34,371 nt of DNA from Methanobacteriaceae archaeon (GCA_051649785.1 JBOFHT010000009.1:4644-39014); one strand, 5' to 3'. Numbered from the stretch's first letter, positions 1-34,371 are shown. Made by a program: numbers and translations. Notes: a model not told the origin generated them from the letters alone.

Positions 1-1
1 T

Positions 2-136
2 GAAGAATTAAGAATTGTTTATGTTGCTATTACACGACCAAGAAAAATCTTACAGGTTGCTGTTCCTAAAAATGATGAAAAACAGTGGCTTGAATTTTTT
101 AATTCATATCAAACCTCTTTAAATAGTTTTTTTTAG
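2..136 (+). CDS. 3' end of a UvrD/REP-type (SF1) helicase gene, truncated by the window edge
   Basis: Frame 2 is open from position 2 and reads EELRIVYVAITRPRKILQVAVPKNDEKQWLEFFNSYQTSLNSFF*. The ELR-x-x-YVAITR-x-+ string matches the motif VI region near the C-terminus of UvrD/PcrA/Rep-like helicases. Confidence 0.55.
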   Translation, partial: EELRIVYVAITRPRKILQVAVPKNDEKQWLEFFNSYQTSLNSFF

Positions 137-224
137 AAAAAAAGAATTTATGATGGATTCTAAAAAATTGAAGTATGATAATACATAATTTAATTGCCCA
201 CACATACCATAATATTACAATAAG

Positions 225-1001
225 TCATTTATTTTCACCAATAATCTTCAAAGACCTTTTAGCTTCATTAACAATCATATTATCAGTGACATTATTACTA
301 TCACAATCATTACCACAGCTAACAATAAAACCCTCTAAAAACTCTCTACACTCCTCCAACGGAAATGCAGAAAAACACATAAATATCTTCCAAACAATTA
401 CATCTTCACCATTAACAACATCAACATTACCATCATCAGAATAATCAAATAAAAAGCTCAAAATAACATTAAAATTCTCAACAGTAGCTAAACTACTATT
501 ATAAAAAATAAGAAAACCAATAGCGTCTAAAACTTCAGAAATCTTAGCCTTATTCTTACTTTCTAAAACTGAAAATAAAACTTCTAAAACTTCACAATCC
601 ATTTTACCTAAAGTTCTTGCAATAATATCACGAGGTAATGGGTAGCTTTTTTTCTTAGAAACTTTATTAGGAATCTTTTTATGTTGGTTATTGCCAATTT
701 TTCCTAAATAATTAGTCATTAATTTAGCAGTAGTTTTATTTCCAGTTTCAAGAAAATTAAAAATTTCTAATCTAGTATATAGTGCTTTTTCAGTTGAGAG
801 AAGACTTAATAAAACATTTACATAATCTTTATTATTACAGCTGAATTTTTCAGAGAGTAATCTAACAGCTACTGTTCTTTCAACAGGATCATCTGATTTA
901 AGACAAACAAATAAAGATTCCTCTGAATAATCTTCAAATTTATTAATATCTCCTTCATCAATCATTCCTCTTTTTCTTAATTGGCTATTAGAACTTTTCA
1001 T
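225..1001 (-). CDS. HEAT-repeat protein, function unknown
   Basis: ORF 225..1022. HEAT-like helical repeats are visible (DPVERTVAVRLLSEKF; LLSLLSTEKALYTRLEIFNFLETG; PLPRDIIARTLGKMDCEVLEVLFSVLES...VLDAIGFL). AGGAG lies about 10 nt upstream of the second ATG (MKSSN...), so the start is placed at 1001 rather than 1022. Confidence 0.55.
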   Translation of the reverse strand: MKSSNSQLRKRGMIDEGDINKFEDYSEESLFVCLKSDDPVERTVAVRLLSEKFSCNNKDYVNVLLSLLSTEKALYTRLEIFNFLETGNKTTAKLMTNYLGKIGNNQHKKIPNKVSKKKSYPLPRDIIARTLGKMDCEVLEVLFSVLESKNKAKISEVLDAIGFLIFYNSSLATVENFNVILSFLFDYSDDGNVDVVNGEDVIVWKIFMCFSAFPLEECREFLEGFIVSCGNDCDSNNVTDNMIVNEAKRSLKIIGENK

Positions 1002-1055
1002 ATAAATTACTCCTGTAACCATTAATAATAATGGTAATAATACATAATCGTTATA

Positions 1056-1436
1056 TTAATATATTCTTTTTATATCATCAAATATATCAAAATCATAATC
1101 AAAACTAGCTATTTCATTAATTTCATTATTTATCATAAGAATATGACTTAAATTATCGAAAAACCCAACATTATTAATTAAAGTATCTTCTAATGCATTA
1201 CTATAATATATTCTATCTTCATAAACATTCATTTCTGTTAATTTTTCATAAATCCTATTAACTGTTTCATCATTTTGTTTTAATTTCCTTAAAACTGTTA
1301 ATGTTTCATATATAACCATTTCACTTATTACTATTTCTTTTTCATTAATATTTTCCATTATTTTTAAAGCTCTTTTATGATTTTGGACTTTTTCAACAAA
1401 AAAATTAACTAAAAAACTTGTTTCTAAAAATATCAT
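1056..1436 (-). CDS. vapC: PIN-domain toxin, VapC-like
   Basis: 126 aa of PIN-domain size and layout: MIFLETSFLV (first acidic position is E, not D), ISEMVIYE, FFDNLSHIL, SFDYDFD. It sits 8 nt downstream of a small RHH gene in the same orientation. Confidence 0.7.
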   Translation of the reverse strand: MIFLETSFLVNFFVEKVQNHKRALKIMENINEKEIVISEMVIYETLTVLRKLKQNDETVNRIYEKLTEMNVYEDRIYYSNALEDTLINNVGFFDNLSHILMINNEINEIASFDYDFDIFDDIKRIY

Positions 1437-1444
1437 AAATACAA

Positions 1445-1747
1445 CTATTTATTAGTATGTATGCTATCTATTACTTCAGTTACATCAATTTCTTCATCTA
1501 CTTTAACAATTCCCCCCATATCTTTTAAGCTTTTATACTTTTTACATGTAATTTTAGGTTTGGGTAATGTATCATTTATTAATTGAGCTTTTATTTTCCC
1601 TTTATTTTTACCAATATTTTCTAGTCCTTTGTTTATAAGCTCATTAATAATACTATTTTGACTTGTACCTTCTTTAACTGCCATAGATTTTATTTTAATT
1701 AATATATCTGTTGGAATCTTTATAGTAGTTGTTTTAGTTTCAATCAT
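1445..1747 (-). CDS. vapB: Ribbon-helix-helix (CopG/Arc-like) antitoxin, VapB-like
   Basis: The N-terminus TTIKIPTDILIKIKSMAVKEGTSQNSIINELINKGL fits a beta-strand/helix/helix RHH fold. 100 aa, immediately upstream of the PIN gene. Confidence 0.6.
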   Translation of the reverse strand: MIETKTTTIKIPTDILIKIKSMAVKEGTSQNSIINELINKGLENIGKNKGKIKAQLINDTLPKPKITCKKYKSLKDMGGIVKVDEEIDVTEVIDSIHTNK

Positions 1748-1880
1748 AATCTATCCACCCCAAAATATTATATAATTATATATTTGTATATTTATACATT
1801 TATATTTTTTTATACATATAATTCAACGAACTTATAAGATATTAAATTAATCATATCTACTCAAATCATTATACGACAAA

Positions 1881-2049
1881 ATATTAACAAAAATTACCAA
1901 AAAACATACCCCCCCCAACTAATAAAACAACCAAAAAAAACTAAACAAAAAAAATATTACCAAAAATTACCAAAAAACATACCCCCAAACTAAAAAAACA
2001 ACCAAAAAAAAAAACTAAACAACAAAAGATTACCAAAAATTACAAATAA
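1881..2049. repeat. Tandem repeat of about 73-75 bp, about 2.3 copies, nearly G-free on the + strand
   Basis: Copy 1 is 1881-1953 (atattaacaaaaattaccaaaaaacataccccccccaactaataaaacaaccaaaaaaaactaaacaaaaaaa). Copy 2 is 1954-2028 (atattaccaaaaattaccaaaaaacatacccccaaactaaaaaaacaaccaaaaaaaaaaactaaacaacaaaag). A partial copy 3 is 2029-2049. The + strand has only one G between 1876 and 2026. Confidence 0.85.
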
Positions 2050-2056
2050 TTATACT

Positions 2057-2602
2057 CTATTTAATTATTCCATAAATACAAGAATCTAAGAGTTTTCCAT
2101 TTTTATAAACATTGTTTCTTAAAACACCTTCTAAAACAAATCCTGCTTTTTCAAGTGCTTTTTGAGATCTAATATTATTAGAAAATGGTTCAGCATAAAT
2201 TCTAGCTATTTCATAATCCACGTATTTATTAAATCCACAAACATCCATATTATTGGTTTTAATATTATTAAATCCATTAAATGCCCAATTTACTACTTCA
2301 TTAATAGCTTTACTAATAATACCATTATTCCAGAAATCTTCACCTAACCAGTAGCCAAGTTCAACAGTCCTAAAATGAATATCTTCTTTAAAAGTCAATC
2401 CAATACAACCAACAGCATCACCATTAACATCAATAGCCAAAACAATAGAATTATCAAGATTATTAATAAACTCCTCAGCATCAGCTATAGAATACTGATG
2501 TGGAAAAGCATCTCTAAGATTATTAGCAATATTAATATTATTTGCATATTTAGCTATACTACCTGAATCATCTAAAGTTAATTTTCTTAATTTAAAATTC
2601 AT
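2057..2602 (-). CDS. GNAT family N-acetyltransferase (RimJ/RimL-like)
   Basis: 181 aa. The sequence LRKLTLDDSGSIAKYANN...ELGYWLGEDFWNNGIISKAINEVVNWAF...NIRSQKALEKAGFVLEGVLR matches the Acetyltransf_3/RimJ-type pattern. Confidence 0.8.
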   Translation of the reverse strand: MNFKLRKLTLDDSGSIAKYANNINIANNLRDAFPHQYSIADAEEFINNLDNSIVLAIDVNGDAVGCIGLTFKEDIHFRTVELGYWLGEDFWNNGIISKAINEVVNWAFNGFNNIKTNNMDVCGFNKYVDYEIARIYAEPFSNNIRSQKALEKAGFVLEGVLRNNVYKNGKLLDSCIYGIIK

Positions 2603-2774
2603 TAATTAAAGTATTGATTTAACATTATTTATATTTACTACTATAAGTCAGTATTATGAATATAAGAAAAGATATAATTATTATAAAAACAATAATATAA
2701 CAAAACTATTAGGAAAAATAAAAATTATTATAATGATTATGAATACAATGTTATAATTCATTTGAGGGGGTAGA

Positions 2775-5306
2775 ATGAATTCATATATAGCTGAAATTGA
2801 AGAATTGGAAAGAGAAATACAAGAAAGTTCTCGTAAATTAAAAGTTTTAAAATGTAAAACATTCCTTAAACCATTTGGAATGGAACATAGAAGGAATTTC
2901 AACTCTATTAGTAAAATTGATAAGATTTTAAAAGAAAAAAACATTTCATACTGGCATGGAAAAGAATATGTAAGATATTTAGGTGATTTTGAACTAGATG
3001 AAATGATAACATTTAGAATTACAGATTTAAAAGGTGAAAATATTACAAAAAATAAAATAAAATATGAGCATGCTGGAAAAATACATACAGCAGAAGATAG
3101 AATTAATTTAGAGTTATACAATCACCAAAATGAAGCGATAAAAGATTTAACTCAGTTAAGTGAAACCAATAGTCATTTTAAAACACTTCTCGTCTTACCA
3201 ACAGGTGCTGGAAAAACATTAACTGCTGTATATTGGTTGTTAAAACATTATACTAATCAAAATAAGAAAATTTTATGGATAGCTCATAGGCATGAGCTTT
3301 TAGAGCAAGCTAAAAAATCTTTTATAAATCTTGCTTATTCTGAGCTATTAACGAACAGAAGTTCTTTTAATTATCGTGTTATTTCAGGATTACATGATAG
3401 AGCTGTGAATATTGAAAATACTGATGATGTGATAATTGCAAGTAAAGATAGCTTAAATAAAGGTTGTGAATACCTTGAAAAATGGATAAGTCAAGAAGAT
3501 GATGTTATTTTAGTAATAGATGAGGCACATCATGCAACTGCAAAAACCTATAGAAAAATTATTGATAATATTGCTAAAACTACAGATAACTTTAAACTAT
3601 TAGGTTTAACAGCTACTCCATTTAGAACTGCTGAAAATGAGCAAGGTCTTTTAAAAAAAGTCTTTCTAGATGATATTGTTTATAAAATAGATTTAAGAGA
3701 ACTTATAAGTATTGAAATTCTTTCAAAACCTAATTTTGAAGAGTTAAAAACACATTTTGATATTACAAAGGAATTAGATGAGAAAACATTAGATAGAATA
3801 AAATATTTTGATATTGATAGTATTGGGGAAGGTGTAGCTGAAACAATTGCCAAAAATAAAGATCGTAATCATTTTATTGTTAAACAATATATTGAAAATA
3901 AAGATAAGTACAAACAAACATTAGTATTTGCATTAAATATTGATAATGCACTTGCATTAAATGCATTATTCCAAAATAAAGGTGTAAAATCAGATTATGT
4001 TGTTTCTGCAATTAAAGATGCCACAGGTAAGATAAATGTTGCACCTAAAGAAAATCAAAAAAATATTAAAAAGTTTCGTGAGGGTGATTTAGAAGTTCTT
4101 ATTAATGTAAATATCCTTACTGAAGGGATGGATTTACCTGAAACTCAAACAATTTTCTTAACACGCCCCACAATATCTTCTATATTAATGACACAAATGA
4201 TTGGTAGGGGATTGCGGGGTCCGAAAGCGGGAGGTTCAGAAGAACTTTATATTGTTAGCTTTATTGATGAATGGAAAGATAAAATTGCTTGGGTAAATCC
4301 TGAAAATCTCTTAATTGAAGAAGGTGCAGTATTCCCTACAGATTCACACAATAACCGAGAAATAATTCTTAGGTTAATTTCAATTGCTAAAATTGAAGAA
4401 TTTGCAAAAATTATGGATCGTACTGTAGATGCTGAATATATTGAGTCATTAGAATTTATGGATAGAATTCCAATAGGACTAATTTCATTTTCAATACTAA
4501 AAGCAAAAGGTGAAGAAGAAAATGAAAAAAATTGTAGAATACTTGTTTATGATAATATATTCCCATCTTATACCAATTTTCTTAATTCACTCCCAGAGTT
4601 CTTTAAAGAACATAAACTTGAAAATCAAGACTTTTTAGCTGAAGAAGAATTAGAAAGTTTATCAAAGAAAATAGAAAATAGATTCTTTTATGATTATGAC
4701 AAATATCCAGGATATTATATAGAAGATATAAAAGACATCTTATTTTATTATGCTCAGCATGAAAATATTCCAATATTCCTTAAATTAGAGGATAGAGATG
4801 ATTTAGATATAACTAAACTTGCAGATGAGATTTGTGAAAAGGATATGGGTCCTAAAAAGAAGAAAGATTTTTTAGATGAATCGTGGGATAATGACAAAAA
4901 TAAATGGGAAGCTTTCTTTGGATACGATAAAAAATATTTCATTAGTGAAGTTGATTTAGCTATAAATAAAATAGTTAATCCTGAGCAATATATAACTATA
5001 AAAAAACCATTTGTTGATGAAGAAGAAAGAAAATATGAAAAATTATCAATGAATGAATTAAGAGAATTTGATCCCGAATACTGTAAAAAACTAAGTGATG
5101 CAGTTTATAATAAATACACTGATGAAGACGGCTACTATTATAGTGCTATGAGCGGTAAAGCCAGTAGAAGTAAATATAAATTTGTATTCGAAATAGATCA
5201 TATTATCCCTATATCCAAGGGAGGATTAACTAAATTTGACAACTTGCAACTTTTAACAAGTGAAGAAAATAAAATAAAACGTGACCAAATGGAGGGATAT
5301 GAATGA
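2775..5306 (+). CDS. SF2 (ResIII/Rad25-like, DEAH) helicase fused to a C-terminal HNH endonuclease; the N-terminal (about 115 aa) and central (about 280 aa) regions are unassigned
   Basis: Strong RBS (GAGGGGG-N4-ATG). Helicase motifs: I LVLPTGAGKT (nt about 3198), Ia ILWIAHRHELLEQ, II VIDEAHH (nt about 3519), III GLTATPFR, V/VI LTEGMDLPE...QMIGRGLRG. HNH motif at the C-terminus: FEIDHIIPISKGGLTKFDNLQLLTSEENKIKRD (nt about 5190-5290). Confidence 0.9.
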   Translation: MNSYIAEIEELEREIQESSRKLKVLKCKTFLKPFGMEHRRNFNSISKIDKILKEKNISYWHGKEYVRYLGDFELDEMITFRITDLKGENITKNKIKYEHAGKIHTAEDRINLELYNHQNEAIKDLTQLSETNSHFKTLLVLPTGAGKTLTAVYWLLKHYTNQNKKILWIAHRHELLEQAKKSFINLAYSELLTNRSSFNYRVISGLHDRAVNIENTDDVIIASKDSLNKGCEYLEKWISQEDDVILVIDEAHHATAKTYRKIIDNIAKTTDNFKLLGLTATPFRTAENEQGLLKKVFLDDIVYKIDLRELISIEILSKPNFEELKTHFDITKELDEKTLDRIKYFDIDSIGEGVAETIAKNKDRNHFIVKQYIENKDKYKQTLVFALNIDNALALNALFQNKGVKSDYVVSAIKDATGKINVAPKENQKNIKKFREGDLEVLINVNILTEGMDLPETQTIFLTRPTISSILMTQMIGRGLRGPKAGGSEELYIVSFIDEWKDKIAWVNPENLLIEEGAVFPTDSHNNREIILRLISIAKIEEFAKIMDRTVDAEYIESLEFMDRIPIGLISFSILKAKGEEENEKNCRILVYDNIFPSYTNFLNSLPEFFKEHKLENQDFLAEEELESLSKKIENRFFYDYDKYPGYYIEDIKDILFYYAQHENIPIFLKLEDRDDLDITKLADEICEKDMGPKKKKDFLDESWDNDKNKWEAFFGYDKKYFISEVDLAINKIVNPEQYITIKKPFVDEEERKYEKLSMNELREFDPEYCKKLSDAVYNKYTDEDGYYYSAMSGKASRSKYKFVFEIDHIIPISKGGLTKFDNLQLLTSEENKIKRDQMEGYE

Positions 5307-6193
5307 ATATTAAAAAAATATTGATAATAGTCGGAATAGTATTTTTAGTCTGTGCATTTGCACTTAGTAGTGTGAATGCTGCAAGCTCAACAAAAACAGT
5401 CAAAATAAAATCAAATGATTTGAAGAGTTATGTGTATGTTAAAGATAAAAACGGAATAATAATGGATCGGGAAAAAACTGTAAAAAGTATGTACATTTAT
5501 GTTAAGGATTATAATTATGATTATAAAGACGGAGATGGCATTTATAAAGGGAGTTATATTAAAATATATCAAGGTGAAAAAGTAAAACCTTTAAAAGTCA
5601 CTGCTAAATTCAATAGAACTAATGCGAATGGTAAAAATACTACTGTTATTAAAACTGCAACAATATCTTTGAAAACTTATAATGGGGAATTTAATGGTGT
5701 TCTAGACATATATATTGATAATGGTACTTTCGATTCAGCGACAATATACTATAAAATTGTAAAAGTTGTTAAAATTACGAAATACAAATCTTATACATTC
5801 TCTCAGTCTAAAAATAAAGCAGATTATAGTACTACAAAATTATTAAGAGGAAATATATTTAATGGAAAGTTTAAAGTTAAGGGAGAAAGATATTGGAAAA
5901 GTTTTGCATATAGTTATAGTAGTGGAACTTATAATTATAACATATTAAAAGGAAGATTTAATAGTAAAACCTATCATACTATTGATGTGTGGGGTTTATA
6001 TGGTTCAGTTAACCCTACAATAACTATAACTTATCGAAAATTTAATTCTAATGGAAACCCAACAAGTACAAAAGATAAAAAGGTATTTAAAATCTCAAAA
6101 TATGGATTAACTTATAAATCAAAACTAAATTGGGTTCCAGAGAAAGTTGTGATTAAATATAAGATTAAACAGATTAAGTATGTGTATAAATAG
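5303..6193 (+). CDS. Exported or membrane-anchored protein of unknown function, rich in K/Y/N and beta-strand-like sequence
   Basis: The start ATG overlaps the helicase-HNH stop (ATGA at 5303-5306). The N-terminus MNIKKILIIVGIVFLVCAFALSSVNA/AS is a typical Sec signal peptide with an AXA-like cleavage site. The remainder alternates hydrophobic and polar residues, consistent with a beta-rich fold. Confidence 0.75.
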   Translation: MNIKKILIIVGIVFLVCAFALSSVNAASSTKTVKIKSNDLKSYVYVKDKNGIIMDREKTVKSMYIYVKDYNYDYKDGDGIYKGSYIKIYQGEKVKPLKVTAKFNRTNANGKNTTVIKTATISLKTYNGEFNGVLDIYIDNGTFDSATIYYKIVKVVKITKYKSYTFSQSKNKADYSTTKLLRGNIFNGKFKVKGERYWKSFAYSYSSGTYNYNILKGRFNSKTYHTIDVWGLYGSVNPTITITYRKFNSNGNPTSTKDKKVFKISKYGLTYKSKLNWVPEKVVIKYKIKQIKYVYK

Positions 6194-6293
6194 CAGCATA
6201 TTAGGAGATTTAAAAAGAGACTGTTAAAATATTAGCTGTTAGGAAAAATTAGTTATCTAAAACTCTTTTATTGGATAAATAGAGAATAATAAT

Positions 6294-6419
6294 ATGAAAA
6301 GCGAAGCTGATCTTCGAAGAGAAGTTGTGAAAAGCTTGATAAAGAATTTTGGTTCATTTGATGCTGGAAGATTTATAGATATTATTAAAAGAGATGAATT
6401 TGACTATAAACATGATTAG
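6294..6419 (+). CDS. Possible small ORF (41 aa), hypothetical
   Basis: The ATG..TAG ORF reads MKSEADLRREVVKSLIKNFGSFDAGRFIDIIKRDEFDYKHD and is below the ORF-track size cutoff. No clear RBS. It could be a gene remnant. Confidence 0.2.
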   Translation: MKSEADLRREVVKSLIKNFGSFDAGRFIDIIKRDEFDYKHD

Positions 6420-6565
6420 TGATAGTACAAATCCTAATTCATTAGATTACACTAAAACAGAGAATTATAAAAGAAGGAAATGAGTCCGTCACAAATTGTG
6501 ACCAACTGAATTACCCTATTGTGAGGTAAATATTATAAAGCTGAGGTATATATACTAAATGAGTA

Positions 6566-7207
6566 TTAAACATCATATTCCTTAATATATTCCTCAATTT
6601 GTTTATTTTCCCAATCATTACCAAAAACTTTCTTATCGGCATGAAAAAAAATCAAATATCTATAAAAGAGACTTAGTACTGAAAAAGTTAATATTAATTC
6701 AAAAAACAAAGTATTGTTGAAAATATTAGAAGAAGTATAATATAAAATAATATTAATTACAATAACATAAACTACTAAAAAATAAAACTTTTTTTTCTGC
6801 TTGTTTTTATCTTTATTAAATTTAGCATTAAGTTCTTCATTACTTGGGATTTCTTTTGTTTTCATATATTTTTTAAGCTTTTTAATTCCAGATTCTTCAT
6901 TTCTAAAACTTCTTTTTAATAGATATAGTTTAAAATATCTAAATCCTAAAAATATGAGAAAAACTGAGGTAATATATGAAAACATAAAAAGAGGAGAGTT
7001 CATAAACGCCATATTTGATGTAATATTAGATGAAGAAATATTTTCTCCAACTAAACTACCAATGTCCATTGTTACTAATGATCTACCTAGAAATGCAAAT
7101 CTAAGTACAATAATTGTGAATATGCCTATTGTAAATATAATTTGAAAATAAAATTGCCGAGTTTCCTCAACTACTATTTTAGCTCTTTGATATTTTGTAT
7201 CATTCAT
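6566..7207 (-). CDS. Membrane protein with two tandem 2TM-type modules
   Basis: 213 aa. Two units each consist of a basic stretch, then FYF, then two hydrophobic helices (YQRAKIVVEETRQFYFQIIFTIGIFTIIVL...; KDKNKQKKKFYFLVVYVIVINIILYY...). The protein ends with FGNDWENKQIEEYIKE, which resembles the 2TM domain family pattern recalled from memory. Confidence 0.6.
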   Translation of the reverse strand: MNDTKYQRAKIVVEETRQFYFQIIFTIGIFTIIVLRFAFLGRSLVTMDIGSLVGENISSSNITSNMAFMNSPLFMFSYITSVFLIFLGFRYFKLYLLKRSFRNEESGIKKLKKYMKTKEIPSNEELNAKFNKDKNKQKKKFYFLVVYVIVINIILYYTSSNIFNNTLFFELILTFSVLSLFYRYLIFFHADKKVFGNDWENKQIEEYIKEYDV

Positions 7208-7496
7208 TAATAATCTCTACCAAGCTTTTATAACTTTATTCTTAATATTTACAGTAAAATATGAAAAAGTGAATATTATTATAATATTTAGTATCTATAT
7301 TTAAATCGCGGCCAAAAGTCGAAATTTCTAAATCAAAACTTCATTAAAATCCTTGGATGGGTAAATGAATAAAATCTTTCGATATGTAAAATCTTTTTGA
7401 CAATGACTCTATTTAATTTAAAAAAAAGCTATTTAAAAAAGCTATTCAAATACTTAACAGCATTTTTAAAAGAAATATATACTATTTAATGTCTCA

Positions 7497-7549
7497 AAAA
7501 TATGAAAAAAATAAAAAAGCTAAAAAAGATTAAAGCTAGGTTAAAAAAC
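7497..7549 (-). terminator. Oligo-T terminator region downstream of rpl14e
   Basis: Just after the TAG stop the minus strand reads GGTTTTTTAACCTAGCTTTAATCTTTTTTAGCTTTTTTATTTTTTTCATATTTTTG. This contains five T5-T7 runs, the archaeal intrinsic termination signal, plus a small GGTT/AACC hairpin. Confidence 0.5.
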
Positions 7550-7771
7550 CTATAAAGCTTCTAAAGCTTTTTTAACTGCTTCAAGATCATCGGAAACTTC
7601 GATGGTTTCAGCAATAGGTTCTAAGTGGCTGATGTTACATCTTCTGTTTTTAACATCTACCCCTACTACTTCAACAAATTTTTCATCGATAATTTCTACG
7701 ATAACACATTTTTCGCCAGATTCTCTACCAGCGGTCTTAACACATACTCTTCCTACTTCAATAGAAGCCAT
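7550..7771 (-). CDS. rpl14e: 50S ribosomal protein L14e
   Basis: MASIEVGRVCVKTAGRESGEKCVIVEIID... shows the KOW motif typical of L14e. It occupies the conserved position after cmk. Confidence 0.85.
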   Translation of the reverse strand: MASIEVGRVCVKTAGRESGEKCVIVEIIDEKFVEVVGVDVKNRRCNISHLEPIAETIEVSDDLEAVKKALEAL

Positions 7772-25378: not shown

Positions 25379-25425
25379 TTTTAACCTCCTTTCTAAAATT
25401 CTTCTGTTATTTATTAGTAGATTTA

Positions 25426-25440
25426 TATTTAAATTTACTT
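25426..25440 (-). promoter_or_regulatory. Candidate BRE/TATA box of the ribosomal protein operon
   Basis: The minus strand reads AAGTAAA-TTTAAATA, with the TATA box about 48 nt upstream of the L3 ATG. That would leave a short leader containing the AGGAGG RBS. TATA-like strings are very common in this AT-rich spacer, so the call is weak. Confidence 0.3.
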
Positions 25441-25844
25441 AAATTACTTAACTTATGTTAAATTACTTAATTTATTTGATAATTTTAACATATGTAAAAA
25501 TATACAATATAATATTATTAATATAATCTGAATAAATCTCATAAAACATATCTAAACTCATTTATATTATCTATTGATAGTAATTAATATTATTAGTACT
25601 ATCATAGTACGGTAATCACTACAATCATAGATTAATTAAATTATCTAACTTAAATTATAGTATTAGTTAATTATATTACTATTTTTATTTAAAATACTAC
25701 TATTAATACTTTGATTAGTACTATTTGGCATATTAATACTATAATTAATATCACTCTAATTAATATTAGTAAAAATAAGAAATAGACTAATAAACAAATA
25801 GTATTGAATAAATAGTAATTTTAATACTAATTATAATAATAAAA

Positions 25845-26039
25845 CTAGATATTATACTAAATACTATGGTAACTTATTACTAGATAAACTGGATACTAAT
25901 CTAAGATAATTAATCACTTGGAAAAACATGACTAGAGAAAATCTAGGCAAAGACTAGACAAAGATGATGACTAGATGAACATAGCTAAAGCTAGAACAAC
26001 TAAAACCAGTAAATAAAGCAAATAGGACACTATAGCTAG
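25845..26039. repeat. Degenerate short repeats seeded by (G)ACTAGA; a local CTAG cluster in an A-rich, T-poor tract
   Basis: Eight CTAG tetramers occur at 25845, 25880, 25932, 25943, 25954, 25971, 25991 and 26036. The words gactagag, gactagac and gactagat are spaced 17-22 nt apart. Confidence 0.6.
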
Positions 26040-26678
26040 TTAGAACACTATAATAAGTGACATAACAAGTAATATAACAAGTATAGATAGTAAAAACTAT
26101 TTTTATTTAAATATTTATTATATTTATTCAAATATTATATTCAAATACTATATTTTATTATATAATTTATTTCAGATTAATAGCACGATAAATAGAGGGA
26201 ACATGCATATAACATATCTACGAATACAACCATTTAGCAATAGCTAATTTCCATAAAATTCAGTTTATGAAAACATTATTGAGTAAATATTATACTTAAA
26301 TTAGGTTATAGCTTATAAATTCTTATTAAATAATAAGTAAATAAGTTATAAAAATAGATATTTAAGCATAGCGTTATATTATGGTAAATTTAATTCCATA
26401 TCTCGTAACTCTATTAATTAATTGAAATAATTAATATCTATGAACTTATATGAATTTAATCATTGATTTAACTTATGGTTAATATTAAATCTAATTATTA
26501 TTTAATATTAATTGTTTTTGGATTGTAATTTTATTTTTTATTGAGTTTTCTTCACAATAGCTATAATTATGAATATTAATTAAATATTTTATTAATCAAA
26601 TATTGGTAAAACAATATTTTGCTAATTTTTTAAATATTTTAATTAAATTTTTAATTAATATATTTTATTAATTTAATA

Positions 26679-27533
26679 TCATGATAAAAATATCATGTTA
26701 AATATAGATAAAGTGGCAAAAACTGCCTCTTCAGTCCTTACAGTTTTTGTACCTTGATTAGGTATTGTATTAACTTTGATAAGATTCCAATTTGGGCTTT
26801 CAATATCATCACTAATACTAGAGTAAGGACCACCAAACAAAATAGCTAATTGCTTGGAGTCTGATTTAATTGAGTGAATAGCATTTTCAATATCATCTGA
26901 TATATTAGATATATCAGGTGCATTTTTTGAAGTGCTGATGACTAAATCAGGATTAATTAAATTTAAACTTTTTTTAATGTTTTTATTTGTAGCTACTGTT
27001 TCATAGCCCCAGTACACACCAGTAGGACTATCTGGTTCCACTATTACTTCTTTAGCTATTTTAATAATTTTAAAACTAAAGATTTTATTAACAGATAGCT
27101 GTTCTTTGCATAAAGCTAATTCATCTATACCAATATCCACATAAGTACCTTTTTTAGTTCGCTTTACAGTAAATCCCTTTCTATAATCACCGAGTTCTCC
27201 ATGTTCAGTTGGGTGGTGAGGAGTTCTAAGGGGTGGAACAATTCCAATGTGCATTAGCTCCTTTTGAATAGGGAATGCTTTTTTTCTTAAGTACTGTGGA
27301 GTATCCATATAACTAAGAATTGTAGAGATAAATTCTGCCTCTTTTTTTGATGACTCCCCTTTATTATCATCATTGTTGTCTTTGTAAATTACAATTTTAT
27401 CAACATTGAAAACTGCAGCTGCTCTTCCGATAAGCCCTATTTTAGATGTTTTCAATTTTAAATCCTTTGTTTCACTAAGAAATGAGTCAGGAATAAATAT
27501 TGACAGTTGAGTTTTATCTAGATCTTTATGCAT
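26679..27533 (-). CDS. SPOUT-superfamily putative RNA methyltransferase (COG2106, MTH1/SPOUT1-like)
   Basis: LSIFIPDSFLSETKDLKLKTSKIGLIGRAAAVFNVDKIVIY...LAILFGGP...NQGTKTVRTEEAVFATLSIFN. Its position directly upstream of rpl3 matches what I recall for Methanothermobacter MTH1. Confidence 0.7.
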   Translation of the reverse strand: MHKDLDKTQLSIFIPDSFLSETKDLKLKTSKIGLIGRAAAVFNVDKIVIYKDNNDDNKGESSKKEAEFISTILSYMDTPQYLRKKAFPIQKELMHIGIVPPLRTPHHPTEHGELGDYRKGFTVKRTKKGTYVDIGIDELALCKEQLSVNKIFSFKIIKIAKEVIVEPDSPTGVYWGYETVATNKNIKKSLNLINPDLVISTSKNAPDISNISDDIENAIHSIKSDSKQLAILFGGPYSSISDDIESPNWNLIKVNTIPNQGTKTVRTEEAVFATLSIFNMIFLS

Positions 27534-28205
27534 TTATCAATATATGTTTTATAAGTATATAAACCTTAGCATATGCATATAGTAGCATAGCTAAGTCAAT
27601 CTCAAAAAGATTTATAATGATTATTTAAGGGGTTAATTAAAATTCTGAAGAAATTCTAAAAAACATATAAATATTTTATTAATCATTTTAAGAAAGGTTA
27701 AGTAAATTTAATATATTTCAAAGTTCCATTATTATTCCATAAAATATTCCACTAGTTTTACAAAATACTCCTAAAATCAATTTGAAATTATGATTATTGT
27801 GCATTGAACTAATGGGTATAGATAATAGGAAAAAATATATTAATAAAATATATGTAAAAAGTTATATTTAAATGTTTTTATCAGTTATCTACTCTGTAAA
27901 TTTAAGGATTTTTTAAAGTAAATTTTTATAAAAATTCAAGAAATTATTTAGAATATTTAAAGTAATTTATTAAATTTAGTTAAGATTTAGTAAAGATTTA
28001 GTATTTAATTGCTTAAGTTGACAGAGTTGATCAGTTATATCTAAAAGTGGTCAAAGTGTTAGCTATTGGAAAAATATTGGAAAAAATTAATTAAAAAACA
28101 GTTTAAAATCAAAAATTAACCTTAAAAAACTAAAATACTAGTAAAAGTTTTATTAATAGAATAAAAAAGCTACCTGTCAAAAGAATTAGTAGCCTAGCTT
28201 AAAAA

Positions 28206-28925
28206 TTAAAATTCAACTCTAAATGCAATAACTTTAACTAATTTAGCTTCTTTTTTATGAAAACTATACTGATTACTTATTTTAAACTTGTATCGGAACT
28301 TAGTAGTTACAGCTCCCCCTAATTTCTCAAAATAATTCTCAACAAATTCCTCAGTACTTCCCATATGAAATGAATAAACAACCTTAGCTATTTTGCTAGC
28401 TGTTTCCATAAATATTCTATCAGCACCTGACTTAGCTCGTTTTTGAGAACCAAATGGAGGATTTTGAATAATAGTATCTATATTAGAAATAGACTTGGAA
28501 ATAGAATCAGAAATACCACTATTTATGTCGCTATTATTCCCATTACTATCATTATCCGTACCATTAAGATTATTAGAATTATTAATATTAAGATTATTAA
28601 TATCCTCACTTATAAAGTTGATATTAGGGTTATTTTTACCATTAGTGTTTGTATTATCAATAAAATCATTAAGCACATTATTAGCAATAACAATCGCATC
28701 CTCATCAATATCAATACCGGTAACACGAGAAGCACCTAAAAATAAAGCACTAAATGCTAAAATACCAGTACCACAACCTAAGTCAAGAACATTCTTACCT
28801 GTAATATCGCCTAAGATAAATGCATTCCATAATAGATCTGCAGCTATAGGTGCAGGGGTAGAATATTGTTCAAGGTGAATTTTAGGATTAGAATGTGTGG
28901 GAAATCCTTCTATAGCCATTTCCAA
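28206..28925 (-). CDS. METTL5-like (COG2263) N6-adenine RNA methyltransferase with an N/S/D-rich insertion; TTG start, or ATG at 28919
   Basis: [19 protein letters not shown] motif [15 protein letters not shown], catalytic NPPFG. An asparagine-rich low-complexity stretch of about 60 aa lies between motifs. Confidence 0.8.
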
Positions 28926-29495
28926 ATGCTTTTTTTTAAAAGAATTCTTGAATTTGAATTTATTTTGAAGTTCTATAAATTTTGAAATATTATAAACTTT
29001 AGTATTATAAATTTTGACCAGTCCTTTTGTGAAGTAAAATTAATTGGAATTAATGATAATATTTTAATTATAGCTATAAATCTCAATTTATTATAATGTA
29101 ATTATAATATAATATTGTATAATAATAGTATAATAATATTAGTTATAATATTTAGTATAAATTAGTTATAATTTAATATAACTGGTTTAGTCATAAATAT
29201 AATATAAATGATAAATTTTAAGCATTAATGATAATATTTAATTAATAGTAAAATTATATAAATAATTAACTAAAATGTATTAAATTTATGCTAATTAAAC
29301 TACTTTAATAAACTAATACTAATATACTAGTACTAATAATCAATTGAATAATTGCTAATTATATATAAATTAAATATAATCTAAAATAGCTAATATATTT
29401 ATAACGATAATAAATTAAAAGATAATTTATGGATAATTATAGATAATTATAAATAAATATGAATAAATCATTAAAAAGGTAAATGAGGGCTTAAA

Positions 29496-33288: not shown

Positions 33289-34371
33289 TTAATTATTTTT
33301 TTCAATTCTTTTAATTTCATCCTCAATTTCTTCAACTAAATTATCATAATGTGATTTATAATAAAGATCTTGTAACTTTCTAAACCCCATATACTCTTTT
33401 TTAGCTTTACTATGAGCTTTTTTGCTAGTTACTTTACCTTTGTTATTTAAAACATCCATACTATTAAATTCAATATAATTATCTAAAAATTCACTCCAAT
33501 CTTTCATAAATACAGGAGCATTTCTTTTTGCTTGATTTTTAACTCTCATTTCAGCAGCATTTAAAAATCCTTCAACAAGACGATTAGCTATGTCAATTTC
33601 ATCTTCATTTAAATAATTTTTAGACACAATTACATCACTAATGTGAATTTTGCTTTGAGGAGATCCTTTCCAATTTGTAAGTCCCATATTAATTCTTTTA
33701 GAATCTGCTCTATCAACTATTATCTCAGCTGCAGTTCTATCTGTAACTGCATATATTATTTTATTTTGAACATTAGCATAAAAGTTCTTTGTTGATTGTG
33801 CATTTTCGTTATAATCTTTAGCAGTTGCATAAAGATCTGCCACTTTTTGGTAAAATCTCCTCTCAGACACACGTATTTCCCGTATCCTTTCAAGTAGCTC
33901 ATCAAAATAATCTTTACCTAATCTACTACTATTTTTTAATAGCTCATCATCTAAGATAAAGCCTTTTATTAAATATTCCTTTAAAATACCAGTAGCCCAT
34001 ATTCTAAAATGTGTTGCTTGTTTAGAGTTCACACGATATCCTACTGCTATAATTCCATCAAGATTATACCATTTCTCAGGCCTACCCCTATTTTTAGAAT
34101 TTAGAAAGGAATCCTTGCTAAAATCATTTTGCCCACCAAATAGCTTTTTAGAGTTTATACTTACTTCTTTTTCATTTAACTCCTCTTCTTCAAATATATT
34201 TAAAAAATGATTTGAAATATTTTGCCCAGTAGTCCCAAATATACTTGCAACTGTTTTTCGTGATGCCCACAAAGTTTCATTTTTTTTATCAACTAAGAAT
34301 TCAGCAGTTATAGCTCCTTCTAAACCATTATAAAATAATGTTTCACTTAATTCAAAGTTATTATCCCCCAT
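33289..34371 (-). CDS. RhuM family (virulence-associated, Fic/DOC-related) protein; the ATG is at the very window edge
   Basis: NETLWASRKTVASIFGTTGQNISNHFLNIFEEEEL...NLDGIIAVGYRVNSKQATHFRIWATGILKEYLIKGF...ERIREIRVSERRFYQKV match RhuM-family hallmarks recalled from memory. The window ends on the putative start codon, so the true start cannot be confirmed. Confidence 0.65.
   Translation of the reverse strand: MGDNNFELSETLFYNGLEGAITAEFLVDKKNETLWASRKTVASIFGTTGQNISNHFLNIFEEEELNEKEVSINSKKLFGGQNDFSKDSFLNSKNRGRPEKWYNLDGIIAVGYRVNSKQATHFRIWATGILKEYLIKGFILDDELLKNSSRLGKDYFDELLERIREIRVSERRFYQKVADLYATAKDYNENAQSTKNFYANVQNKIIYAVTDRTAAEIIVDRADSKRINMGLTNWKGSPQSKIHISDVIVSKNYLNEDEIDIANRLVEGFLNAAEMRVKNQAKRNAPVFMKDWSEFLDNYIEFNSMDVLNNKGKVTSKKAHSKAKKEYMGFRKLQDLYYKSHYDNLVEEIEDEIKRIEKNN

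Follow-up and report, generated by a model that had tools for sequence, protein, structure and literature searches.

We analyzed a 34,371-nucleotide stretch of DNA from a Methanobacteriaceae archaeon (GCA_051649785.1 JBOFHT010000009.1:4644-39014), here called the window, which is low-GC (28.6%) DNA of a metagenome-assembled genome (MAG). Positions 2,775 to 6,193 hold two adjacent genes. The first encodes an 843-residue protein that joins a superfamily 2 (SF2) helicase core to an HNH nuclease domain at the C-terminus, and the second encodes a 296-residue protein that is predicted to be exported. On balance, we favor a role for the helicase-HNH protein as a solitary, methyltransferase-independent translocase-nuclease acting against mobile elements, that is, in defense. 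By sequence comparison, its family is large, highly conserved, and horizontally mobile, crossing the domains of life. An earlier note on this DNA had proposed that the two genes form a defense module, and we consider it very probable that no conserved module of this kind exists. Instead, the family appears to carry a small accessory domain that is fused to the helicase in some members and supplied on a separate, translationally coupled cytoplasmic protein in others. The features of the gene pair are as follows.

2764..2770, +, Shine-Dalgarno-like GAGGGGG, 4 nucleotides (nt) upstream of the helicase start codon (read from the sequence)
2775..5306, +, gene for the 843-residue helicase-HNH protein, which belongs to the long form of a widespread, unnamed family (open reading frame, ORF)
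2775..3029, +, N-terminal accessory domain (residues 1–85), the least conserved part (hhalign, hidden Markov model, AlphaFold2)
3105..4268, +, SF2 helicase/translocase core (residues 111–498) with LPTGAGKT (motif I), DEAH (II), TATP (III), and QMIGRGLRG (VI) (Pfam ResIII and Helicase_C)
4269..5129, +, conserved family-specific region (residues 499–785), no described domain (no Pfam match; AlphaFold2; 44 invariant columns)
5130..5303, +, HNH (beta-beta-alpha-metal) nuclease domain (residues 786–843), D808-H809...N823...N832 (Pfam, PHROGs, invariant residues, AlphaFold2)
5291..5306, +, junction of the two genes: GGAGGG (5291–5296), then ATGA (5303–5306) (read from the sequence)
5303..6193, +, gene for the 296-residue ORFan, a predicted lineage-specific exported or cell-surface protein (ORF)

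Domain architecture of the helicase-HNH protein

An NCBI protein from a Methanobacteriaceae MAG matches the 843-residue protein (P0001) with 100% identity. Pfam places ResIII at residues 112–284 (E = 5e-29) and Helicase_C at residues 369–481 (E = 1.6e-11). With its two RecA-like domains and motifs I, II, III, and VI, the protein belongs to the SF2 helicase superfamily (ResIII/DEAD-like). At the C-terminus, Pfam HNH covers residues 805–830 at 24.2 bits (cut-off 21.4), and HNH_4 and HNH_5 were also matched. In PHROGs, endonuclease VII (E = 6e-9) and five HNH families match over residues 763–840. PHROG_16, annotated as a DNA helicase, matches residues 94–684 (E = 8e-67). The D-H...N...N motif lies on a hairpin and a helix, as in beta-beta-alpha-metal nucleases, and the domain is predicted to be catalytic. 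The complete SF2/ResIII core and the C-terminal HNH domain that the earlier note had read from this frame are thus borne out by the ORF, by Pfam, and by the invariant motifs.

We built an AlphaFold2 model of the protein from a 25-sequence alignment, with a mean predicted local distance difference test (pLDDT) score of 70. The N-terminal domain is confidently modeled (pLDDT 83–89) in the order helix-strand-helix-helix-strand-strand-strand, which resembles a winged helix in this predicted order of elements. A profile search with this domain against PDB sequences and Pfam gave no match. Residues 499–593 are of low confidence, and residues 595–780 are helical. The beta-beta-alpha unit of the HNH domain spans residues 788–841, with strands at 794–799 and 805–809 and a helix at 829–841. 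When the model was compared with the PDB using Foldseek, only the motor was matched. RadD was the top match, together with SauUSI (7clg), Hef, MDA5/Dicer, XPB, and HsdR, and a profile search against PDB sequences agrees with these motor matches.

Spread and conservation of the family

A search of 5.8 billion clustered proteins returned over 5000 matches for the 843-residue protein. The best 120 are ~800–1450 residues long, mostly ~850, and are 50–62% identical over 88–100% of the query. Their hosts include Bacteroidota, Acidobacteriota, Ignavibacteriae, and Methanoperedens, as well as many unassigned metagenome contigs. A pattern scan of 185,579 species, taking one genome per species, confirmed at least 503 loci, so that relatives are present in at least 503 species genomes from many bacterial phyla and from archaea. 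The description of the helicase as an orphan therefore fails in the sense of lacking relatives. Members are present in culturable hosts, with long forms in the Bacteroidota (for example Bergeyella zoohelcum ATCC 43767, L045; Kaistella palustris, L009; and Hymenobacter spp.) and short-form operons in Clostridium gallinarum (L029) and Selenomonas flueggei ATCC 43531 (L064).

In the 25-member alignment, helicase motifs I, II, III, and VI are invariant, as are D808, H809, N823, and N832. The family-specific region (residues 499–785) also holds many invariant residues. The fraction of sequences with the majority residue is 0.80 in the motor, 0.65–0.71 in the C-terminal regions, and 0.51 in the N-terminal 85 residues. 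We looked for a hypervariable module by per-region conservation and found none in the family.

Some members are larger, at 1000–1450 residues (P0017, P0029, P0034; L023, L025, L030, L031, L036, and L047), and carry extra domains. These include TPR/Sel1-like repeats, a Ser/Thr kinase with SUMF1/FGE, and thioredoxin (P0090), and they are possibly alternative sensor modules.

Among 50,697 phage records, the family had no full-length relative, only matches to the generic core at less than 30% identity. On this collection, we ruled out a phage replication or packaging gene; a provirus gene of this kind was an outcome that the earlier note had named as counting against its proposal. A plasmid gene was likewise ruled out, as 72,556 plasmids gave no relative except a single distant one (29% identity).

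The downstream gene

The stop codon of the helicase gene overlaps the start of the 296-residue gene in the ATGA at 5303–5306, as the earlier note had stated and as can be read directly from the sequence. GGAGGG (5291–5296) sits 6 nt upstream of the second ATG, inside the helicase gene. Given a stop probability of 0.091 per codon in this AT-rich region, the chance probability of an open frame is 6e-13 for 296 codons and 1e-35 for 843 codons; neither frame is therefore due to chance. The 296-residue gene is adjacent to the helicase gene and is probably co-transcribed with it. Four-nucleotide overlaps are frequent between co-directional genes of unrelated function.

The 296-residue protein has a single hydrophobic segment at residues 1–30, which reads MNIKK, ILIIVGIVFLVCAFAL, and SSVNA/AS in succession. 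The signal-peptide-like N-terminus recognized in the earlier note is evident in this pattern, and we infer a signal peptide with a V-N-A/A cleavage site. The remainder of the protein is hydrophilic, with an abundance of K, Y, and T and no Cys. No family was found for it in Pfam, PADLOC, NCBIfam, or PHROGs. A word-indexed search of the 5.8 billion clusters returned only the protein itself. An exhaustive phmmer search of 1.84 billion representatives added two marginal matches (E ~ 1e-4), both uninformative: a surface protein with Ig-like repeats (24% identity) and a short, spurious match in a eukaryotic RING protein. By these searches, the protein is an ORFan with no apparent real relatives. A single-sequence AlphaFold2 model was unusable (pLDDT 40), being confident for the N-terminal helix only.

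A functional two-gene defense module, made from one mRNA and with the exported protein acting, for example, as an envelope sensor or effector, would fit the ATGA overlap, the second Shine-Dalgarno-like sequence inside the first gene, the shared strand, and the accessory context. We nevertheless regard such a module as highly improbable, since it is largely refuted by a lack of co-occurrence, which the earlier note had itself named as a refuting outcome. In addition to the empty homology searches, all six frames of 84 loci hold no ORF related to the 296-residue protein. At only one of 80 other loci is the helicase gene followed by an ORF whose N-terminus is signal-like. This ORF is lipoprotein-like and lies 68 nt after a 1003-residue fusion, with no overlap. 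The genes downstream of the three closest helicase homologues are unrelated or on the opposite strand, and the partner that the family does have is a different, predicted cytoplasmic protein, described below. With the pairing of nuclease and secreted partner failing this comparison, the locus is much less remarkable than had been proposed.

Accessory domain in cis and in trans

We called and classified ORFs in the 84 loci, and the family splits into a long and a short form. The long form is ~840–870 residues and was found at 25 loci (24 distinct), the window protein included, with no constant neighbor. The window protein fits this form, as it is of ~850 residues, has the N-terminal domain, SF2 core, 499–785 region, and HNH domain, and shares at least 50% full-length identity with the others. 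The short form is ~735–770 residues, lacks the first ~90 residues, and occurs in Clostridia, Negativicutes, cyanobacteria, and others. Short-form proteins are 41–48% identical to the window protein over residues ~90–840.

At 32 short-form loci, the helicase gene is followed by a gene for a protein of ~172–192 (about 177) residues, with an overlap of 1–8 nt, which indicates translational coupling. Such coupled pairs occur in Clostridia and Negativicutes (L029 and L049–L084, for example L055:6010–8807). The ~177-residue partner has no hydrophobic N-terminus and is accordingly predicted to be cytoplasmic. It had no Pfam or PADLOC match. We considered whether the 296-residue protein is a diverged form of this Firmicutes partner, which was ruled out by hhalign (E = 0.87).

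The C-terminal half of the partner is homologous to the long-form N-terminal domain (hhalign E = 1.1e-4 over 69 columns). A joint alignment of the two is gapless, with a common K/R-x-R-T-L-L...G-Y/M-K-R-R...I-T-F-R pattern. A hidden Markov model (HMM) made from the C-terminal half of the separate partners matches residues 21–83 of the window protein (E = 9e-4) and other long-form proteins at the same position, with E values of 1e-11 (L021), 3.5e-10 (L043), and ~1e-4 (L001 and L004). The N-terminal half of the partner weakly resembles an internal helicase region of other members, equivalent to residues 499–785 of the window protein (E from 2.6e-6 to 1e-2). The distribution is mutually exclusive: all 32 helicases with a separate partner lack the N-terminal domain, and where that domain is fused, at 25 loci (24 distinct), no separate partner is encoded.

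From these alignments, the accessory domain is evidently fused in cis in the long form and supplied in trans on the coupled protein in the short form. The short-form helicase together with its ~177-residue gene is an unnamed candidate two-gene system. The arrangement is a natural experiment in domain organization and is the most useful lead to come from this locus. If the family is an immune nuclease, the small accessory domain is the obvious candidate for a sensor or regulator.

Genomic setting

The genes of positions 1–7300 are, in order, a HEAT-like gene, PIN (VapC), a ribbon-helix-helix (RHH)-like antitoxin, GNAT, the helicase-HNH gene, the 296-residue gene, a 41-residue ORF, and a 2TM membrane protein gene. 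None encodes a methyltransferase or a specificity subunit, which upholds the earlier statement that this is not a canonical type I or type III restriction-modification (R-M) locus. VapBC, GNAT, and 2TM neighbors had also been named and are annotated here; the UvrD-like helicase listed with them was not found among the neighbors in the window. The region meets the ribosomal protein gene L14e (7550–7771), and the 2TM gene is the one that adjoins it.

Three related genomes, those of Methanobrevibacter filiformis, M. cuticularis, and one more Methanobrevibacter, share the order L34e-cmk-L14e-cbf5, then the S13 operon, with a little variable material after cbf5. In the window, L14e is followed by the 2TM gene, the 41-residue ORF, the 296-residue gene, the helicase, and the GNAT, VapBC-like, and HEAT-like genes, and cbf5 does not occur anywhere in the window. 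Because the L14e-cbf5 adjacency is broken and cbf5 is missing, positions 1–7300 are either accessory or rearranged DNA at a conserved junction. The gap after cbf5 in M. filiformis (compared stretch: window 7208–7771 versus L085–L087) also holds accessory genes (AAA-ATPase_like with PDDEXK_9 and AAA_14 with DUF4143). The two ribosomal operons thus seem to enclose a recurrent site of variable DNA.

The nearest named relatives of the cytidylate kinase (cmk) are those of M. filiformis and M. cuticularis, at 72–73% identity. The nearest relative of the helicase is 62% identical, whereas relatives of the same organism's cmk are 73–94% identical. As the nearest helicase relative is this distant even though the organism has sampled relatives, the helicase does not belong to the conserved core genes of the sampled lineage; a core gene was another outcome that the earlier note had set against its own proposal.

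The three closest homologues (61–62% identity, on contigs of 26–30% GC) are solitary genes, and none has a constant methyltransferase partner in our neighborhood census. Around them are McrB/McrC-like, type I R-M, PIN/MazE, Fic, and HEAT-repeat genes. More widely, the long-form flanks hold 119 Pfam families among 99 proteins. Phage integrases are the commonest (5), and DNA methylases, McrB_N, DDE transposase, and the primase-like DUF927 also occur. PADLOC matches in these flanks are type I, II, and III methyltransferases, pAgo, Dsr1, UzuA, PDC-S02, mad2, and NERD with UvrD. The broken L14e-cbf5 junction, and homologues that sit among R-M, McrBC, pAgo, Dsr1, Uzume, toxin-antitoxin, and integrase genes, agree with the accessory, defense-island-type context that had been described for this region.

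HEAT-repeat genes lie near the helicase in the window (225–1022, minus strand) and at two of the three closest loci (L003:2501–5050 and L004:9154–13176), and one of these genes is fused to an N6 DNA methylase. The proteins have no detectable sequence similarity to one another, and we dropped the association; the proximity is probably a coincidence.

Proposed role and alternatives

We infer a defense role from genomic context and domain architecture, and the trigger and the part played by the N-terminal domain belong to the same model. An SF2 motor like those of RadD, SauUSI, and Hef would load on DNA and translocate in an ATP-driven manner, and the DNA would be cut by the HNH domain at the C-terminus, whose D-H...N...N center is intact. 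The small N-terminal domain may be a regulatory or sensing module, which the short form would receive in trans as the C-terminal half of its coupled ~177-residue cytoplasmic partner. Since both a methyltransferase and a hypervariable specificity domain are lacking, discrimination of self from non-self would depend on recognition of a conserved cue, which could be a modification or a structure of the DNA, or else a factor specific to infection. The 296-residue gene would encode a lineage-specific, exported, beta-rich protein that is functionally unrelated and lies downstream by chance.

Several observations weigh against this proposal. Conservation is unusually high for a defense gene (80% majority identity in the motor and 65–71% in the C-terminal region), and the Pfam HNH score barely clears its threshold. 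Some long-form neighbors are housekeeping genes. The GC content at third codon positions (GC3) of the helicase gene, 0.15, equals that of host genes, and the window has no tRNA, flanking direct repeats, or integrase; by these measures, neither composition nor structure marks the gene as recently acquired. Co-expression of the 296-residue gene is suggested by the 4-nt overlap and by the Shine-Dalgarno-like sequence within the helicase gene, and because the 296-residue protein has no homologues, a functional link particular to this lineage lies beyond comparative data.

The first of these observations would suit an accessory enzyme of DNA repair, recombination, or replication restart, in which a RadD/Hef-like helicase is joined to a structure-specific HNH nuclease. 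RadD and Hef are the best full-model motor matches in NCBIfam, and high conservation throughout the protein, in which no domain is hypervariable, some housekeeping neighbors, and host-like codon composition would all be expected of such an enzyme. However, the RadD and Hef scores fall far under the family cut-offs, and the distribution is patchy, with the family in roughly 0.3% of species or more yet crossing domains of life at over 50% identity. Furthermore, the gene is absent at this locus in the nearest sampled Methanobrevibacter relatives, and its neighbors are frequently defense or mobile-element genes. We therefore consider a repair function unlikely, if the strongest of the alternatives. 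Less probable again is a cargo, maintenance, or selfish function of an integrated element, such as a homing-type HNH or a replication helicase. Integrases are the commonest neighbors (5 of 99), transposase and DUF927 primase-like genes occur as well, the region interrupts a conserved junction, and PHROG_16 is matched. Against this, full-length relatives are missing from the 50,697 phage records, the family is essentially absent from the 72,556 plasmids, and positions 1–7300 lack an integrase, a tRNA, att-like repeats, and any other gene of an element. Status as cargo is, in any case, compatible with defense genes and typical of them.

Two extensions of the defense proposal differ widely in likelihood. 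It is quite possible, though we put it forward tentatively, that the entire family, whether the accessory domain is fused in cis or carried in trans by the ~177-residue partner, is a new and widespread defense system independent of a methyltransferase. The other is that, in this methanogen lineage, the helicase-HNH protein has recruited a newly evolved exported protein, through which an envelope event would act on the cytoplasmic nuclease. Only the 4-nt overlap and the shared strand speak for such recruitment, and we find it the least credible of all the possibilities raised here. A new defense family is far more likely than recruitment of an exported partner.

Other features of the window

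Between the RHH-like antitoxin and GNAT genes, positions 1860–2055 hold three tandem copies of an A-rich unit of ~73 nt, each ending in a run of C (ATTACCAAAAATTACCAAAAAACATACCCCCC). As the whole unit repeats, this is not a CRISPR-like array of repeats and spacers. The 41-residue ORF (6294–6419, plus strand; MKSEADLRREVVKSLIKNFGSFDAGRFIDIIKRDEFDYKHD) lies in the 372-nt gap that separates the 296-residue gene from the 2TM gene. This ORF has no family match and may not be a gene. The 2TM gene (6566–7207, minus strand) encodes a 213-residue membrane protein (Pfam 2TM, E = 8.7e-7), abuts L14e, and had no match in PADLOC or PHROGs.

At the other end, a gene for a RhuM-family "virulence protein" (33289–34371, minus strand; Pfam E = 6.5e-96) reaches the right edge of the window. 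Islands and mobile elements typically carry genes of this family, and a second accessory patch is thus suggested at this edge. Positions ~25400–29400, flanked by the L3 end of the ribosomal operon on one side and a biotin carboxylase gene on the other, have a GC content of 0.19–0.27 and few long ORFs. An RNA methyltransferase (26679–27533) and a small SAM methyltransferase (28206–28925) are found there.

Comparison with known systems

We compared the 843-residue protein with PADLOC-DB 2.0, Pfam, NCBIfam, Hna, and SauUSI, and no named system matched it. PADLOC-DB 2.0 dates from 2023, and later systems were compared through the literature only, where we found no named helicase-HNH system and no paper on the family. 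No full-length PADLOC model matched, including Hhe, Nhi, PD-T4/T7/Lambda, and PDC-S/M, among others. The best models, mREase_IV (SauUSI-type, E = 4e-30) and PbeA, cover residues ~76–502 only.

The closest motor relatives, by NCBIfam and by structure, are RadD and Hef. The window protein scores 113 bits against a cut-off of 720 for RadD (NF053632, E = 1e-32), too low for assignment to that equivalog, and 83 bits against 610 for Hef (E = 2e-23). RadD has no nuclease, and the nuclease of Hef is XPF-type rather than HNH. Both are also lineage-conserved repair genes, unlike the patchy, accessory gene of the window. With HsdR of type I and Res of type III R-M systems, the protein shares the ResIII motor (PF04851) and gives weak PADLOC matches (REase_I and REase_III) over the core only. 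Scores were 72 bits against 550 for EcoAI R and 64 against 729 for PRK11448, below what a type I or III R/Res subunit requires. Those systems use a PD-(D/E)XK nuclease, whereas the window protein has HNH, and the adjacent HsdM or Mod and specificity genes (HsdS) of a type I or III system are missing from positions 1–7300.

Like the window protein, SauUSI (PDB 7clg) unites an SF2 translocase and a nuclease in one polypeptide and lacks a cognate methyltransferase. Among PDB sequences, the SauUSI helicase core gives the best match (E = 3e-21), and it is a top structural match as well; the match covers residues 111–512 only. SauUSI differs in that a PLD nuclease stands at its N-terminus and an SRA/DUF3427 reader at its C-terminus. 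In the window protein, the nuclease is a C-terminal HNH domain, the N-terminal domain and the 499–785 region are undescribed, and Pfam finds no PLD nuclease and no SRA, DUF3427, or PUA reader; the N-terminal domain has a winged-helix-like order of modeled elements.

Hna of Sinorhizobium meliloti is an 845-residue, stand-alone, widely distributed abortive-infection protein, with a DinG/XPD-like SF2 helicase that includes an Arch domain and a C-terminal PD-(D/E)XK 3'-5' single-stranded DNA exonuclease (PMC13381803). The two proteins are alike in size and in having an N-terminal SF2 ATPase and a C-terminal nuclease in one stand-alone chain. The window protein, in contrast, has a ResIII/RadD/Hef-like core and HNH. 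Identity with Hna was ruled out, as both the helicase class and the nuclease differ (PMC13381803), and no Hna chain was among its PDB sequence matches.

Also close is the short-form operon of Clostridia and Negativicutes, which has the same family of helicase, the same HNH, and the same accessory domain. There the domain is on a separate coupled protein, whereas the window protein has it fused and has no partner. The helicase-HNH family is large, conserved, and apparently transferred between domains of life, and it is not recognized as a unit by Pfam, NCBIfam, or PADLOC 2.0. As a defense protein, its long form would be a type IV-like or Hna/Nhi-like single-protein nuclease directed against mobile elements.

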